A stretch of 19,748 nucleotides of DNA from a virus (taxonomy: Duplodnaviria > Heunggongvirae > Uroviricota > Caudoviricetes). The stretch lies in the IMG/VR virus record IMGVR_UViG_647533161_000006; one strand, given 5' to 3'. Positions within the stretch are counted from its first letter, which is position 1; every line of letters begins with the position of its first letter. The notes beneath the pieces were generated by a model that was not told where the DNA came from, searched no databases, and saw nothing but the letters and a program-made list of their open reading frames with translations. Made by a program: the position numbers and the translations under genes. Below, piece by piece: positions 1 through 8,479 of the stretch.

Positions 1-1143
1 CTATGCTGTTTTGATATCTACGATAACCCAGTCTTTACCACGATCATCATTGTATCGGTCGGTCATTTTTCTGGATTTATGGCCTAACAACTTTTGCGTA
101 TCCAGACCCTGTTCCCGATATAACCGTTCTGACAGAGATCGCTGCTCATGAAATGTGGGCGCAGTTCCTTGCTCCCATTTTATGCCACATTTTTCCCTGG
201 CCTTTTTAAAAGCCGTTGTCAGAGTATTTGCAGAAACCTGGTCTCCTCTGTTTGCTTGAGAGGTAGTGTGACGGTAATGGACCAGATATTTACTAACAAC
301 AGCATCCCTGCACTGAGATATAACTTCACGAAGGGTAATATTCAGAGCATCGCATTTCAGGTTAAGCGGAATAGCAAGTTTTGAACCGGTTTTTTCCTGA
401 GTAATGTGCAACATGTCGTCCCAGATATCAGAGAATTTCAAATTGCAGATATCACCTAAACGTTGTCCAGTAACAAGAGCAAGTAGCATGCCGCATTTTA
501 AATAGGGCTGCCGTCTGCTTACGCTTTCAAATATTGCCTGCCATTCGGGCAGTGACAATCTTTGGCGGTTTACTCGATTTCGCGGTTGTTTTGTTGCCTG
601 CGCTGGGTTAAATCCTGGCGGAACATGTCCTGCGTGTTGTGCTTCTTTGAAGACGTCGATCAACACCATTCTCACGACTTGCGCCATCCTGTTATGACCT
701 TCAGCCTTTACAGCATCAATTATTTCGGCAATATCAAGTGCGGTAATATCCTTGAGGTGTTGCATTCCACAATGCTCACGGAAAAGACGAATGGGTTTGC
801 CTTTTTGCCGATAGGAGTTGGGTCTTAGTTCATTATGTTGCAGCCTGTCCTCCTGGATAGAAATATATTTATCAAGCCATTCTGTCACCGTAATTTCTGA
901 GCGCCTGCCTTTCATTCTTTCCAGACGCTCATTGACGCTTAATATTTGTCGGGTACGTTGTTCAGCAATAATGGTATTTGCTTCAGTAGCAACTTGTTTT
1001 GCTTCATTCTCATCAGTTCCTAAGCTATGAAAACGACCGGATAGTGGATGTTTGTATTGCCAATATACCTTTCCGGTTCGCTTATCTAATTTGCAATATA
1101 AATTGGGTATAGAGATTTTGTGAGATCGGGGTCTAGCAGCCAT
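1..1143 (-). CDS. int: Phage tyrosine integrase, 380 aa
   Basis: Full minus-strand ORF with stop at 1-3 and ATG at 1143-1141. C-terminal HKSRKMTDRY matches the H-x-x-R...Y catalytic signature of tyrosine recombinases. Start overlaps the upstream xis stop, the usual xis-int arrangement. Not lambda Int itself (different length and sequence). Confidence 0.9.
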   Translation of the reverse strand: MAARPRSHKISIPNLYCKLDKRTGKVYWQYKHPLSGRFHSLGTDENEAKQVATEANTIIAEQRTRQILSVNERLERMKGRRSEITVTEWLDKYISIQEDRLQHNELRPNSYRQKGKPIRLFREHCGMQHLKDITALDIAEIIDAVKAEGHNRMAQVVRMVLIDVFKEAQHAGHVPPGFNPAQATKQPRNRVNRQRLSLPEWQAIFESVSRRQPYLKCGMLLALVTGQRLGDICNLKFSDIWDDMLHITQEKTGSKLAIPLNLKCDALNITLREVISQCRDAVVSKYLVHYRHTTSQANRGDQVSANTLTTAFKKAREKCGIKWEQGTAPTFHEQRSLSERLYREQGLDTQKLLGHKSRKMTDRYNDDRGKDWVIVDIKTA

Positions 1144-1748: not shown

Positions 1749-1795
1749 TTTTACACCTCAGTTGGACGATGTTGAAATTTGCTGCTTTGAGGCCA

Positions 1796-2014
1796 TCACA
1801 ATCCCCATTGTTTGTTCTTAAGTTCGATCTCCTCCTGGCAACTTGCACAAGTCCGACAACCCTGAACGACCAGGCGTCTTCGCTCATCTATCGGATCGCC
1901 ACACTCACAACAATGAGTGGCAGATACAGTCTGGTAGTTCAGACGACGCATTTTTATTGCTGTATTGCGCTGTAATTCTTCGATTTCTGATGCTGAATCA
2001 ATGATGTCTGCCAT
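1796..2014 (-). CDS. TraR/DksA-family C4 zinc-finger protein, 72 aa
   Basis: Translation contains CxxC...(17)...CxxC (CCECGDPIDERRRLVVQGCRTCASC), typical of TraR/DksA-type zinc fingers that bind the RNA polymerase secondary channel. Size and position match TraR-like genes of lambdoid phages. Confidence 0.75.
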   Translation of the reverse strand: MADIIDSASEIEELQRNTAIKMRRLNYQTVSATHCCECGDPIDERRRLVVQGCRTCASCQEEIELKNKQWGL

Positions 2015-3357: not shown

Positions 3358-3926
3358 NNNNNNNNNNNNNNNNNNNNNNNNNNNNNNNNNNNNNNNNNNN
3401 NNNNNNNNNNNNNNNNNNNNNNNNNNNNNNNNNNNNNNNNNNNNNNNNNNNNNNNNNNNNNNNNNNNNNNNNNNNNNNNNNNNNNNNNNNNNNNNNNNNN
3501 NNNNNNNNNNNNNNNNNNNNNNNNNNNNNNNNNNNNNNNNNNNNNNNNNNNNNNNNNNNNNNNNNNNNNNNNNNNNNNNNNNNNNNNNNNNNNNNNNNNN
3601 NNNNNNNNNNNNNNNNNNNNNNNNNNNNNNNNNNNNNNNNNNNNNNNNNNNNNNNNNNNNNNNNNNNNNNNNNNNNNNNNNNNNNNNNNNNNNNNNNNNN
3701 NNNNNNNNNNNNNNNNNNNNNNNNNNNNNNNNNNNNNNNNNNNNNNNNNNNNNNNNNNNNNNNNNNNNNNNNNNNNNNNNNNNNNNNNNNNNNNNNNNNN
3801 NNNNNNNNNNNNNNNNNNNNNNNNNNNNNNNNNNNNNNNNNNNNNNNNNNNNNNNNNNNNNNNNNNNNNNNNNNNNNNNNNNNNNNNNNNNNNNNNNNNN
3901 NNNNNNNNNNNNNNNNNNNNNNNNNN
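3358..3926. other. Run of 569 N (assembly gap or masked sequence)
   Basis: Directly visible in the sequence; interrupts the 5' end of exo and most of bet. Confidence 1.
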
Positions 3927-4039
3927 CACCCTTTAAATGCCGTCTGGCGAAGAGTGGTGATCAGTTCCTGTGGGTCGACAGAATCCATGCCGACACGTTC
4001 AGCCAGCTTCCCTGCCAGCGTTGCGAGTGCTGTACTCAT
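3927..4039 (-). CDS. bet: Lambda Bet (Red beta) ssDNA-annealing protein, N-terminal 37 codons only; remainder in the N run
   Basis: ATG at 4039-4037; MSTALATLAGKLAERVGMDSVDPQELITTLRQTAFKG matches the lambda Bet N-terminus. Confidence 0.88.
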
Positions 4040-4044
4040 CCGTT

Positions 4045-4461
4045 TTATACCTCTGAATCAATATCAACCTGGTGGTGAGCAATGGTTTCAACCATGTACC
4101 GGATGTGTTCTGCCATGCGCTCCTGAAACTCAACATCGTCATCAAACGCACGGGTAATGGCTTTTTTGCTGGCCCCGTGGCGTTGCAAATGATCGATGCA
4201 TAGCGATTCAAACAGGTGCTGGGGCAGGCCTTTTTCCATGTCGTCTGCCAGTTCTGCCTCTTTCTCTTCACGGGCGATCTGCTGGTAGTGACGCGCCCAG
4301 CTCTGAGCCTCAAGACGATCCTGAATGTAATAAGCGTTCATGGCTGAACTCCTGAAATAGCTGTGAAAATATCGCCCGCGAAATGCCGGGCTGATTAGGA
4401 AAACAGGAAAGGGGGTTAGTGAATGCTTTTGCTTGATCTCAGTTTCAGTATTAATATCCAT
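4045..4461 (-). CDS. gam: Gam (RecBCD inhibitor), 138 aa
   Basis: Translation [61 protein letters not shown]… is near-identical to lambda Gam, including the internal Met used for the short GamS form. Confidence 0.93.
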
Positions 4462-4559
4462 TTTTTATAAGCGTCGACGGCCTCACGAAACATCTTTTCA
4501 TCGCCAATAAAAGTGGCGATAGTGAATTTAGTCTGGATAGCCATAAGTGTTTGATCCAT
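4416..4559 (-). CDS. kil: Kil (host cell-division inhibitor), 47 aa
   Basis: Internal ATG at 4559-4557 gives [47 protein letters not shown], matching lambda Kil; overlaps the gam start as in lambda. Confidence 0.8.
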
Positions 4560-4692
4560 TTTTTGGGACTCCTGGCTGATTAAGTATGTCGATAAGGCGT
4601 TTCCATCCGTCACGTAATTTACGGGTGATTCGTTCAAGTAAAGATTCGGAAGGGCAGCCAGCAACAGGCCACCCTGCAATGGCATATTGCAT
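4528..4692 (-). CDS. cIII: CIII (FtsH/HflB inhibitor protecting CII), 54 aa
   Basis: ATG at 4692-4690 and an ending …NTYGYPD* were translated by hand (MQYAIAG…); overlaps kil in another frame as in lambda. Not in the ORF track because it is under 60 aa. Confidence 0.8.
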   Translation of the reverse strand: MQYAIAGWPVAGCPSESLLERITRKLRDGWKRLIDILNQPGVPKNGSNTYGYPD

Positions 4693-4764
4693 GGTGTGCT
4701 CCTTATTTATACATAACGAAAAACGCCTCGAGTGAAGCGTTATTGGTATGCGGTAACGCCGCGC

Positions 4765-5133
4765 TCAGGCGGCTTTGATAGTCATATCATCTGAATCAAA
4801 TATTCCTGATGTATCGATATCGGTAATTCTTATTCCTTCGCTACCATCCATTGGAGGCCATCCTTCCTGACCATTTCCATCATTCCAGTCGAACTCACAC
4901 ACAACACCATATGCATTTAAGTCGCTTGAAATTGCTATAAGCAGAGCATGTTGCGCCAGCATGATTAATACAGCATTTAATACAGAGCCGTGTTTATTGA
5001 GTCGGTATTCAGAGTCTGACCAGAAATTATTAATCTGGTGAAGTTTTTCCTCTGTCATTACGTCATGGTCGATTTCAATTTCTATTGATGCTTTCCAGTC
5101 GTAATCAATGATGTATTTTTTGATGTTTGACAT
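4765..5133 (-). CDS. ea10: Ea10 early protein, 122 aa
   Basis: Translation matches lambda Ea10 (MSNIKKYIIDYDWKASIEIEIDHDVMTEEKLHQINNFWSDSEY…). Confidence 0.8.
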   Translation of the reverse strand: MSNIKKYIIDYDWKASIEIEIDHDVMTEEKLHQINNFWSDSEYRLNKHGSVLNAVLIMLAQHALLIAISSDLNAYGVVCEFDWNDGNGQEGWPPMDGSEGIRITDIDTSGIFDSDDMTIKAA

Positions 5134-5150
5134 CTATTCATATCCTCACA

Positions 5151-5180
5151 GATAAAAAATCGCCCTCACATTGGAGGGCA
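5151..5180 (-). terminator. Intrinsic terminator on the minus strand (tL-type)
   Basis: Minus strand reads GCCCTC-CAATGT-GAGGGC followed by GATTTTTTATC; sits upstream of ea10 within the leftward operon, so it would be read through under N antitermination. Confidence 0.5.
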
Positions 5181-5393
5181 AAGAAGATTTCCAATAATCA
5201 GAACAAGTCGGCTCCTGTTTAGTTACGAGCGACATTGCTCAGTGTATTCACTCGTTGGAATGAATACACAGTGCAGTGTTTATTAGTATGCCTGTCTTTT
5301 AACCACATCAGGCTCGGTGGTTCTCGTGTACCCCTACAGCGAGAAATCGGATAAACTCTATTCACCCCTACAGAGAGCAAAAGAGAAACGCCG

Positions 5394-5975
5394 ATGAACA
5401 ACTCATGGTGGCAGGAACTAATGCATTTTTTCCTGCAAGGAATGACACTTAAACAGTTGATTCATATGCTAATCATCCTGATCATATTGATTATTGTTAT
5501 GCCTGTAAGCGTAAAAGAATGGATAAACCTGCATAATCCAGAAATCCTTCCTCATTACTGGATGTATTACATCCTGTTGTTTTGCGTTAGCTATGTGCTT
5601 AACGGCGTTGTTAATTCCGCTTATCACGCTGTGACTGTAAGAATTGAGATATTCGCTGCTCAGAAGCGCAAATCTAAAGAAGAGAAATACGTGCAAGATT
5701 TGTTTGATTCGTTAACTCTTGGAGAAAGAGCGTATTTGGCATTCGCTGTAGCCGCTAATAACCAGCTAAAGACAGAAAAGGGAAGCCCTGAAGCAATCTC
5801 ATTGCTCGAAAAAGGGCTTCTTATTCGGGTACCTTCTGCTACTGGATATCCTGAAATCGACCGTTTTGTTATCCCGGAACGCTATAGAAATGAGTGCTAC
5901 ATTAGGTTTGCTGGGAAGAAAGACAGTCTTATGGATGAACTTATCGCTCAGGATAAGCATGGCAAAAACAAGTAA
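5394..5975 (+). CDS. sieB: Superinfection exclusion protein B (SieB)-like inner-membrane protein, 193 aa as drawn
   Basis: Plus-strand ORF convergent with N, with a strongly hydrophobic N-terminal region (LIHMLIILIILIIVMPVSV…YWMYYILLFCVSYVLNGVV); recognised as SieB-like from memory of lambda SieB. The true start may be an internal Met. Confidence 0.7.
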   Translation: MNNSWWQELMHFFLQGMTLKQLIHMLIILIILIIVMPVSVKEWINLHNPEILPHYWMYYILLFCVSYVLNGVVNSAYHAVTVRIEIFAAQKRKSKEEKYVQDLFDSLTLGERAYLAFAVAANNQLKTEKGSPEAISLLEKGLLIRVPSATGYPEIDRFVIPERYRNECYIRFAGKKDSLMDELIAQDKHGKNK

Positions 5976-5991
5976 TTAGCAAATGAATTTA

Positions 5992-6300
5992 TCATCTCGC
6001 CGTCAGTTGTTTTGATTTCCGGTAGCCTGCCGCGTAAATAGCTACGTTTGGCAGGCAAACACTTCCACTGCATTCATCTACTTTCTTGCAGCGAAGGCTT
6101 CCGAGTGATATTGCTTTTTCAGAAAGGCTTAACCGCTTTCTCGGGTCTTCCTGAACAGGTTCCTCACTGTCTGTGCCGAAGATCGAATCGATGATGTTGC
6201 AGATGGAATCACGCTCGATGGCCAGCTTTCTGCGCCGCTCATGACGGCGAGTTTTGGCATTTCCTGCAAATGTTGATTTTCCGTACACGATTACCGTCAT
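5992..6300 (-). CDS. N: N-type transcription antiterminator, P22 gene 24-like, 102 aa from ATG at 6300
   Basis: Arginine-rich motif GNAKTRRHERRRKLAIER near the N-terminus (MTVIVYGKSTFAGNAKTRRHERRRKLAIERD…) matches the P22-type N ARM. The ORF-track entry starts 28 codons upstream at a non-ATG start. Confidence 0.82.
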   Translation of the reverse strand: MTVIVYGKSTFAGNAKTRRHERRRKLAIERDSICNIIDSIFGTDSEEPVQEDPRKRLSLSEKAISLGSLRCKKVDECSGSVCLPNVAIYAAGYRKSKQLTAR

Positions 6301-6418
6301 GATGTTTTCCTCATGTGAAATGGCTTTGGTGGTGATGCGCCAGATGCTGATCTTCTGGTTGCTGTCGTTACTGCTGCAATTCACATCACCCCAAACCCAT
6401 CTCGTTTGGTATCTGTTC

Positions 6419-6453
6419 GCGCTTTGTCAGCGCATCATCGAAGTTAAAGAGCC
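6419..6453 (-). promoter_or_regulatory. nutL: nutL (boxA plus boxB), P22 type
   Basis: Minus strand reads GGCTCTTTAAC (boxA-like) then GCGCTGACAAAGCGC (boxB hairpin, from 6419-6433), the P22-type nutL boxB, about 120 nt upstream of the N start. Confidence 0.72.
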
Positions 6454-6489
6454 TGCCAATCTGTTCCGTTTGGCTGCCAGCGTCCTGCT

Positions 6490-6545
6490 GATGGCGATTA
6501 TAATGAACCAATAGTTCGATATTATCAAGAACTATAAGTACGAAT
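6490..6545 (-). promoter_or_regulatory. Putative pL promoter and oL operator region
   Basis: Minus strand carries TATAAT (plus 6497-6502) and a TTGATA -35-like hexamer (plus 6523-6528) at a non-ideal spacing. Partial dyads (GAACTATAAGTAC, GAACCAATAGTTC) share the AGTAC/ACT..AGT motif seen in the cI-cro operator region. Exact operators not resolved. Confidence 0.35.
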
Positions 6546-6710
6546 TGTTTGTGGTTCATTAACTTAATGAGATATGTTTTTGATATGTAAAGGAATTTAT
6601 TTTTGTAAAGATTGAAGATTGGTCAGTAGGAGAGAAAGAATTGTTTGCTGGCGTGTTAGTTCGTGGGTTAGCACATGTGCGGATGTTAAATAAGGTAGAC
6701 GATCGTGAGG

Positions 6711-6736
6711 AAAAGAAAAACCGGCGCTGAGGCCGG
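6711..6736 (-). terminator. Intrinsic terminator closing the cI/gene-X transcription unit
   Basis: Minus strand reads CCGGCC-TCAGCG-CCGG (GC-rich hairpin) followed by TTTTTCTTTT, a few nt after the gene-X stop codon (6743-6745) and before the putative pL. Confidence 0.55.
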
Positions 6737-6742
6737 GTATAA

Positions 6743-7642
6743 TTATTTGATTATTTCTTTTATAAAGACTTCTTTCGGTTGGTATTTTTTATCTGATGAT
6801 TTGAGCTGGTACGTTATTGTTATATCAGCACGTACAGAAAATTTACCTGCAAAATCTGATGGGTTTACGTTGGGGCCAAGAACCATATTTACTCTTCGAT
6901 CTATTAATCCAGGGATAACAGCAGCCCAACCTTTCTCTGGATTGTCGAGGTCTAATGCACGGATTTCAACATCAACATCAAAATGATCCTGAGTATATGA
7001 CTCTGGTGTGAAGACAACTTCAGTTGGGGCTTTTTTAATGGTTTCAGCGGGAATGGTCACTGTACCACCCCCTGTACCTATGACCATCGTAGATCCTTCG
7101 TCTGCCCTAGCTGGGGCAAGCGTCTTAATGGAACTTTTGGCAAGAGTCTTCTTATTGGTTACCGTGCTTTCTATGATTGCTTGAAGACGGTCAGGTGAAA
7201 TATTAGCCTCACCGGCACCAATATTGATGATTGTATTGTTATTTGCTTCAAAGTGGGAGGTGTTGCTTGGAGCCATAGCCTTAGTTGCTAGAACTAAGCC
7301 ATATCCAACCAGACCAATAACAACAGCACCAACGAGAGCGTTTCTCATTTTCCCATTTCCGATCTTTGCATGAGCGCCAGCAAGAAACTTGTCCATTTCT
7401 TCTTGGCTACCAAAGAGGAGTTTAATAACAATATCTTCATAAAGGCTTCCTGCTTCTAATCGCGCAACATGCACCGATATATCAAGGATATTAGCCCCTG
7501 TCAGTTCCTGCAAAACACCTTCTGATTGTTTTGCGATGGCCTCCCACCCTTGAAGGGAGGTAATCACATCTTTGATGCTTACAGGTTCTTTAGTTGAATA
7601 ATATATGTTTTCGGTAAAGGTTAAAGATAATTCTTGGGACAT
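6743..7642 (-). CDS. Uncharacterised single-pass membrane protein, 299 aa, in the rexAB-equivalent slot
   Basis: Long ATG-initiated ORF (ATG 7642-7640) with a GAGGG SD upstream, co-oriented with and downstream of cI. One hydrophobic segment (NALVGAVVIGLVGYGLVLATKAMA) separates an N-terminal ~100-aa domain from a Gly/Thr-rich ~175-aa C-terminal domain. Visibly AT-rich compared with flanking phage genes; no family recognised. Confidence 0.7.
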   Translation of the reverse strand: MSQELSLTFTENIYYSTKEPVSIKDVITSLQGWEAIAKQSEGVLQELTGANILDISVHVARLEAGSLYEDIVIKLLFGSQEEMDKFLAGAHAKIGNGKMRNALVGAVVIGLVGYGLVLATKAMAPSNTSHFEANNNTIINIGAGEANISPDRLQAIIESTVTNKKTLAKSSIKTLAPARADEGSTMVIGTGGGTVTIPAETIKKAPTEVVFTPESYTQDHFDVDVEIRALDLDNPEKGWAAVIPGLIDRRVNMVLGPNVNPSDFAGKFSVRADITITYQLKSSDKKYQPKEVFIKEIIK

Positions 7643-7771: not shown

Positions 7772-8479
7772 TCATGAACTTTTCAGCCATTCCCTGGCCT
7801 CGATGTCATCTAGGTGGCGAGATTGCTTCAGAATACCAGCTACATACTCCACCTTTGCTACTTGATGATAAGGCAACGTTATTGGCCTGTGGTCTTGGTT
7901 GATGCTTGTAAATTGGTATTCTCCGTCTCTGTCATAGCCAAGAACCTTGATCATGTTGTGCCCTTCAATGGTTCTGACAAACACCTCATCACCTGGGAAT
8001 ACTTTGGTGTTAGGCTCAATGAGTACATATTCTCCTGATTTTATTCTGGGCCACATGCTGTCTCCTTTTACACGAAGACCAAAGGCATCTGGATCATCGC
8101 TATAAATCTTGAGCCACCCATCGCGCTCTTCGGTCATCTCGATGGCACCATCAACACCAAGAATTGCCTCACCAACCACGCGCACTAACCCTTTTTTTAA
8201 TTTGCCAACAATTGAAAAAGTATCTTCATCATTCGCTCCATTTAACGAAGTGCCGTGCTGAAGCCAAACAACATCAACGTTTAGAAATTTCGCAAGCGCA
8301 TTCATTTTTTCCTGGCGTGGTAAAGACTCAGCATTAAACCATTTGCTAACGCCTTTGGACGAAAGAGAAAGGGCACGGGCTATGGCCATTCCCCTACCAT
8401 GTTCATCAAGACCAGCTTCTTTACAGGCTTGCGCTAGCCGCTGGGCGAATTCTTTGCGCACTTTTTCATTCTGAACCAT
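7772..8479 (-). CDS. cI: CI-like prophage repressor (N-terminal HTH, C-terminal S24 LexA-like autopeptidase), 235 aa
   Basis: C-terminal domain contains GDSMWP (Ser nucleophile motif of S24 peptidases) and a downstream Lys; N-terminal region is HTH-like. Divergent from cro across a short operator region. Not lambda CI or P22 C2 by sequence. Confidence 0.85.
   Translation of the reverse strand: MVQNEKVRKEFAQRLAQACKEAGLDEHGRGMAIARALSLSSKGVSKWFNAESLPRQEKMNALAKFLNVDVVWLQHGTSLNGANDEDTFSIVGKLKKGLVRVVGEAILGVDGAIEMTEERDGWLKIYSDDPDAFGLRVKGDSMWPRIKSGEYVLIEPNTKVFPGDEVFVRTIEGHNMIKVLGYDRDGEYQFTSINQDHRPITLPYHQVAKVEYVAGILKQSRHLDDIEAREWLKSS

Follow-up and report, generated by a model that had tools for sequence, protein, structure and literature searches.

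One close counterpart of the locus discussed here has been described in phage lambda. LPR1, since renamed PreS, is encoded between ea10 and ral; it is an Hfq-dependent small RNA with strong Hfq enrichment, and its 3' end is the terminator tL2a (Silverman et al., bioRxiv 10.1101/2024.10.31.621285). It gives bands of ~88 and ~68 nt, is expressed in the lytic cycle only, activates translation of dnaN, and represses alaS; the CUG of its seed comprises the residues mutated in M1 (same preprint). The published 5' end, derived from band size and read coverage, is given as cloned, and the preprint does not address the origin of this end. The full lpr1 deletion made with primer P969 leaves in place a hairpin located upstream of the small RNA, and this hairpin is not discussed there (bioRxiv 10.1101/2024.10.31.621285).

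The other relevant system is the superinfection exclusion module sieB-esc-sas of the Salmonella phage P22 (Ranade and Poteete 1993; BK000583). In the curated P22 record, BK000583, the promoter of sieB is placed at 29690..29720 and a 'sieB RNA start site' at 29727, and both sieB and esc are annotated. The size of the antisense RNA sas is given as 105 nt (PMC12197685), and a sas species of 127 nt has been seen in RNA-seq (sequence P22A-sas, Table 2 in PMC13397905).

We analyzed a 19,748-nt stretch of Caudoviricetes DNA (IMG/VR record IMGVR_UViG_647533161_000006; hereafter, the window), the content of which is the early-left region of a lambdoid phage. A gap of 260 bp, at 5134..5393, lies between ea10 and sieB; the initial annotation, made from the sequence alone, described it as a ral-less segment carrying a terminator, an inverted repeat, a direct repeat and one doubtful open reading frame. 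The features of this gap and its surroundings are as follows.

4765..5133, minus strand: ea10 (DUF2528), recognized by Pfam; downstream of PreS/tL2a in the pL operon
5153..5181, minus strand: intrinsic terminator tL2a, the 3' end of PreS, with stem-loop at 5160..5181 and U-tract at 5153..5159 (terminator scan)
5153..5240, minus strand: homologue of the PreS (LPR1) small RNA, 88 nt, placed by primers P810/P1107 and P1108; 87/88 identical to lambda
5188..5205, minus strand: PreS seed, i.e., the 18 nt that the published seed deletion takes out; identical to lambda
5219..5401, minus strand: 60-aa ORF with TTG start, uninterrupted; judged spurious
5242..5269, minus strand: boundary hairpin GUGUAUUCAUUC-CAAC-GAGUGAAUACAC, 12 bp including one G.U, with a tetraloop, in the pL transcript
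5284..5285, no strand: junction at which the orf28-ral cassette (336 bp) is absent (alignment A1 against lambda, ev207 and 2G7b)
5294..5398, minus strand: sas-like region, complementary to the sieB start codon, leader and promoter, by homology to P22
5321..5345, minus strand: 25-nt palindrome TTCTCG-TGTA-CCCC-TACA-G-CGAGAA around repeat copy 1 (RNAalifold consensus)
5327..5357, plus strand: sieB promoter, PsieB, with the -10 hexamer TAAACT at 5352..5357, by homology to the P22 annotation (alignment A2)
5330..5339, plus strand: repeat copy 1, ACCCCTACAG, at -34..-25 of the sieB promoter, overlapping the -35/spacer region
5364, plus strand: inferred sieB RNA start (A), from BK000583 position 29727 mapped through alignment A2
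5364..5373, plus strand: repeat copy 2, ACCCCTACAG, at +1..+10 of the sieB mRNA
5394..5975, plus strand: sieB, 193 aa (Pfam SieB PF14163, E = 3.2e-25)
5466, plus strand: ATG of esc, an internal in-frame start at the 72-nt offset of the P22 annotation
5992..6384, minus strand: N-type antiterminator

Judged by homology to lambda and P22, the identities of PreS, tL2a, PsieB, the sieB RNA start and the sas-like region very probably hold in the window. A scan of 4000..7000 with Rfam models (E up to 1) reports only the cIII thermoregulator, RF01804, as a full-length match at 4647..4705 on the minus strand (88.5 bits, E = 1.4e-21), and no family over PreS, sas, or the hairpin. Elsewhere in the window, a run of N (masked) at 3358..3926 falls within the recombination-gene region (bet/exo-like ORFs), so the ORF calls around it are unreliable. 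An ORF of 299 aa on the minus strand (6743..7642) is found between the pL/N region and the cI-like repressor at 7772..8479 (HTH and Peptidase_S24), in the position that rexAB occupies in lambda; neither Pfam (above threshold) nor PADLOC recognizes it, and it may be a prophage-expressed accessory or defence gene.

That ral is missing between ea10 and sieB, as had been proposed, is borne out by two lines of evidence. Neither Ral nor orf28 has a significant tblastn match anywhere in the window, and in alignment A1 the 336-bp orf28-ral cassette, present in lambda, ev207 and 2G7b, is cleanly absent, so that the lambda ea10-ral spacer is fused directly to the lambda sequence upstream of orf28. The accompanying idea that something took the place of ral is not upheld by the alignment with lambda, the check suggested at the time, which reveals the absence of the cassette only; on this comparison, nothing has replaced ral, and the window is simply without the 336-bp cassette. 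Nor are the flagged repeats tied to the ral-less state, since the palindrome at 5242..5269 and both copies of CCCCTACAG are found also in lambda and in ral+ relatives. The ral-less arrangement recurs: a stretch of 351 bases that takes in the segment has 100% identity to at least 11 records of sequenced lambdoid phages and 99.7% identity to VT1-Sakai. Matching sequence occurs in ~40% of complete E. coli genomes (2244/5426), Shiga-toxin phages included, a count in which two-piece matches are merged, so that ral-less and ral+ arrangements are counted together and are inseparable. In 2G7b the alignment displays a further insert of 205 bp at the outer edge of the palindrome; this phage has, at 785..982 of its locus, an extra 66-aa hypothetical gene between the boundary hairpin and ral, i.e., one more cassette at the same joint.

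The absence of the cassette also bears on the status of the 60-aa ORF. Its reading frame is uninterrupted, as would be expected of a real small protein standing in for Ral, but the start codon is TTG, there is no Pfam match, and the frame spans the cassette junction and overlaps the sas-like region, the hairpin and the 5' end of PreS. It is not conserved, because in ral+ relatives with otherwise the same flanks it is split by 336 bp. A protein product of this ORF is thus hardly credible, and the first reading of it as spurious was right. We consider the 260-bp gap likely to be a compact block of RNA-level regulators common to lambdoid phages, here minus the optional orf28-ral cassette.

Going along the pL transcript, the first element of this block is the sas-like region that covers the 5' end of sieB. 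From 5327 to 5364 (alignment A2), i.e., over the promoter and RNA-start region of the P22 module (BK000583), the window and P22 do not differ; the 5' end of sieB is near-identical as well, esc starts 72 nt downstream in both, and the sieB leader, from 5364 to the ATG at 5394, is 30 nt long. Sequence matching P22 sas is present over the sieB start, with near-identity over the first ~110 nt in a pairwise alignment; the 127-nt species would extend to 5272 in the window. The 3' flank of the sas-like region differs from the P22 module, because the ral cassette is absent. A promoter for sas is unrecognizable in a consensus scan; the scan, which covered both strands of 5134..5393, finds no promoter at all, so that it lends no support to a PreS or sas promoter and misses the weak PsieB as well.

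The direct repeat CCCCTACAG at 5331..5339 and 5365..5373, which the initial annotation had placed just upstream of sieB, was confirmed, and its unit is really a 10-mer, ACCCCTACAG, starting at 5330 and 5364, in a 17-nt family 88% alike. The 260-nt segment was shuffled 2000 times with its dinucleotides preserved. Direct repeats of 10 nt or more within 60 nt arose with P = 0.0095, and perfect inverted repeats with arms of 9 bp or longer and a loop of 3-12 with P = 0.0085, so both kinds of repeat are unusual, each being reached in only ~1% of shuffles. By their positions, both ACCCCTACAG copies belong to the promoter/leader and to the antisense RNA, in which they read CUGUAGGGGU. The 25-nt palindrome around copy 1 is predicted to form a hairpin in sas, with a GGGG loop and one bulged C, and its natural variants are structure-neutral: the bulged C becomes U in ev207-type loci, and a G-C pair becomes G.U in one further locus (L157). 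Copy 2 is a 10-nt island of identity between divergent flanks in four of the five sieB-side allele types. The remaining allele, L047, is without copy 2; in this IMG/VR contig the second ACCCCTACAG is replaced by a terminator-like ACCCCC-N11-GGGGG downstream of the -10 hexamer and sieB is absent, so that a sieB-type promoter is joined to different cargo. Pairing of the CUGUAG repeats with one another, seen in the single-sequence MFE structure, and looping of copy 2 by a local stem were both considered and dropped, because the flanking stems are in different registers in each allele and do not covary consistently.

An alternative is that the two ACCCCTACAG copies are operator-like DNA sites for a regulator of PsieB, and not features of sas or of the mRNA 5' end. 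A promoter whose -35 region is poor, with the copies at -34..-25 and +1..+10, would suit such a role, as would the 34-bp spacing that is constant across allele types and the conservation of copy 2 amid divergent flanks. However, no candidate regulator is known, copy 1 is embedded in the 25-nt palindrome whose natural variants are neutral with respect to RNA structure, one allele does without copy 2, and the odds against a chance repeat of 9-10 nt are only moderate. The duplication may serve at the level of RNA or as an operator-like element; we think the operator reading on balance unlikely.

At the other end of the gap, the minus-strand terminator noticed in the initial annotation is real (the terminator scan finds the stem at 5160..5181 and the T-run at 5153..5159), and it is the last part of a homologue of PreS. 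The ends of this RNA were set by the primers used for cloning and in-vitro transcription (Table S5 in bioRxiv 10.1101/2024.10.31.621285), and run from GAGCAATGTCGCTCGTAACT to the T-run. Its single difference from lambda (1/88) is in the terminator loop, and its identity to lambda LPR1 is above the 92% that the authors of the preprint use as a criterion of conservation. Like PreS of lambda, the homologue is on the pL strand, upstream of ea10, with the same seed, and ends at a GC-rich stem followed by poly-U. The two loci differ in what precedes the small RNA, which is the sas-like region in the window and ral in lambda, and in nucleotide -1, which is U in the window and G in lambda. An identification of PreS with HnrS (EcOnc10-12), a multicopy small RNA of EHEC prophages, was rejected, as HnrS sits in late genes.

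Between the sas-like region and PreS is the inverted repeat. The perfect 9-bp repeat GTGTATTCA-N10-TGAATACAC indeed exists at 5242..5269, and as DNA the original description, with arms of 9 bp and a spacer of 10 nt, is exact; as RNA, it has to be replaced by a stem of 12 bp with a loop of 4 nt on the minus strand. The stem stops 1 nt 5' of PreS +1. Hairpin and PreS together (5153..5269) correspond to 33,924..34,040 in lambda. We gathered PreS loci from IMG/VR, GTDB genomes, and phage records by the invariant motif GAGCAATNTCGCTCGTAAC, and the hairpin is at exactly the same position in all 145 of the 145 genuine loci and in none of the seven chance matches of the motif in unrelated bacteria. 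Many of the bacterial genome contigs with the PreS motif look like contaminating lambda DNA; examples in assemblies of unrelated bacteria such as Shewanella and Pseudomonas (L140, L147 and L160) are lambda-length, ~48.4-48.5 kb, with low coverage in L140.

The stems of the genuine loci fall into four unrelated sequences. One is the lambda type, seen in the window, and the arms of the other three are as follows.

P22/mEp043 type: ATAGCAGA/TCTGCTAT
ES18 type: AATGCGGA/TCCGCATT
ST104 type: AATGACCA/TGGTCATT

Covariation was computed on alignment A4, which consists of 21 distinct sequences. In this alignment 98.4% of the helix cells are paired, as compared to 17-52% with the partner slid; 8 of the 12 hairpin pairs have changes on both sides; and the covariation score of 0.468, against 0.134 in shuffles, is reached by 0/500 of them. 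The four stem classes amount to only ~3 independent replacements, which swaps of whole inverted repeats could produce, as opposed to stepwise compensation. The strand is also distinguished: the U.G pairs at the base of the stem and at the third pair from the loop turn into C.A mismatches on the plus strand, and when both strands are folded, the minimum free energy is lower on the minus strand in all four classes.

The neighborhood of the stem is conserved in its own way. Apart from single-base exceptions in two loci (L032 and L134), all distinct aligned sequences have the tetranucleotide GC(A/G)C one nucleotide 5' to the stem; it can pair with PreS +1..+4 into a GCAC/GAGC lower helix, which is uninformative on pairing because it never varies. 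An imperfect extension of the palindrome to arms of 22 nt (5232..5279) is found only in lambda-type phages, and the other three classes keep just GC-C with G-GC. Further upstream, the sequence is completely different between phages; the lambda-type hairpin alone is preceded by at least five different contexts. Hairpin classes are combined with PreS body classes in more than one way, and a hairpin is kept throughout. Judged from this comparison, the hairpin is a selected RNA structure of the minus strand, tied to the 5' boundary of PreS. In the literature available we found no published description of it.

Could the palindrome act instead as DNA, bound by a dimeric protein or serving as a joint for recombination between exchangeable gene cassettes, its pairing in RNA being incidental? 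Breakpoints of homology between phages do cluster at the edges of the hairpin (5241, 5274 and 5284 in the window), different cassettes abut it, and the classes of hairpin and PreS body are shuffled. Mosaic joints, or boundary sequences, between exchangeable genes of lambdoid phages have reportedly been described, and in the phages compared here homology likewise ends at the borders of the hairpin and of repeat copy 2. The hairpin differs from such joints in that structure is conserved, not sequence, and conservation of structure would not be expected of a purely recombinational linker; a joint could, moreover, have a function as RNA at the same time. As for a protein-binding palindrome, which had been listed among the options in the initial annotation, it is disfavored because four unrelated stems keep their pairing and not a motif, which argues against a sequence-specific protein, and because the G.U pairs can form on just one of the strands, the better-folding one in all classes. 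Other options on that list, namely, a small RNA, an RNA processing structure, and sieB promoter elements, have turned out to be of the right kinds. An action of the palindrome purely as DNA appears quite improbable.

It is likewise improbable that the hairpin serves the tL2 cluster in pausing or terminating transcription, or is a site for a double cut by RNase III, with no role at the PreS boundary. The location of the hairpin in the pL operon, just upstream of tL2a, is consistent with these roles, and the imperfect lambda-type helix with its 22-nt arms is in principle long enough for RNase III. A site for this enzyme takes approximately two helical turns of dsRNA, for which a stem of 12 bp is short, and the extension that would make up the length is missing from the other three classes. 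Termination is contradicted by the lack of a U-tract after the stem on either strand; the earlier opinion that the palindrome is not an intrinsic terminator was sound, the stem also being AU-rich. The RNase III hairpins in the early region of phage T7 reportedly also lie between functional RNAs of one long transcript, and there, too, the upstream RNA would be left, after a cut on the 3' side, with the hairpin protecting its 3' end. The hairpin in the window differs from them in having a conserved stem of only 12 bp, and its product is a trans-acting small RNA and not an mRNA.

We favor, tentatively and as a plausible reading that stops short of being probable, the notion that the boundary hairpin is a processing and insulator element, which we infer would both release PreS and protect the RNA upstream. 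An endonucleolytic cut at the 3' base of the hairpin would free PreS, 88 nt long, from the pL transcript; the upstream RNA would keep the hairpin as its protected 3' end, a barrier to 3' exonucleases. Release of PreS from the pL transcript fits with the lack of a consensus promoter, the divergent upstream sequences, the lytic-only expression of PreS, and the selected structure on the pL strand. For the locus as a whole, the pL transcript would run antisense through the 5' end of sieB and give the sas-like RNA (~5398 to 5294), the counterpart of the RNA that in P22 blocks translation of SieB and leaves that of Esc unblocked; the hairpin, 5269 to 5242, would come ~25 nt after the sas-like region, and PreS, 5240 to 5153, one nucleotide later. 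PreS would end at tL2a, with N-antiterminated polymerase continuing into ea10. On the plus strand, PsieB, active in the prophage, would drive sieB and esc from the RNA start at 5364.

The same arrangement appears to extend beyond lambda and its nearest relatives. P22 has a PreS-like sequence between gene 17 and orf87 (at ~1760..1870 of the locus, or 28,760..28,870 of record BK000583), and ES18 and ST104 likewise carry one. The body of these sequences is ~80% identical to lambda PreS, which falls below the 92% cut-off of the preprint; there is no variation in the 19 nt at the 5' end and hardly any in the seed, 13 nt are inserted, and the terminator stem is a different one. A boundary hairpin of its own accompanies each of the three. 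The ten sncRNAs reported for P22 include no PreS-like RNA (PMC13397905). It is conceivable, if doubtful, that the hairpin with the flanking GCAC...GAGC is an obligatory and portable signal for PreS release, whatever the upstream gene, that a PreS family with covarying hairpins reaches P22, ES18 and ST104, and that the second copy of CUGUAGGGG in sas may let this RNA recognize, across alleles, the conserved 5' ends of sieB mRNAs.

Most of what the locus contains has been described before; the covarying hairpin at the PreS boundary is the one new detail, and a modest one. This hairpin and the putative PreS-like RNAs of P22, ES18 and ST104, recognized by comparison of genomes, are modest additions that we did not find described in the literature available. 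They refine known biology and do not change it. For annotation, their value is that what would otherwise be a blank, or a false 60-aa ORF, can be labeled as the PreS small RNA, a sas-matching region, and a prophage promoter. For the biology of these phages, the PreS-boundary hairpin is a testable handle on the release of a small RNA from the early-left transcript, and it also suggests that PreS has relatives in P22-like Salmonella phages.
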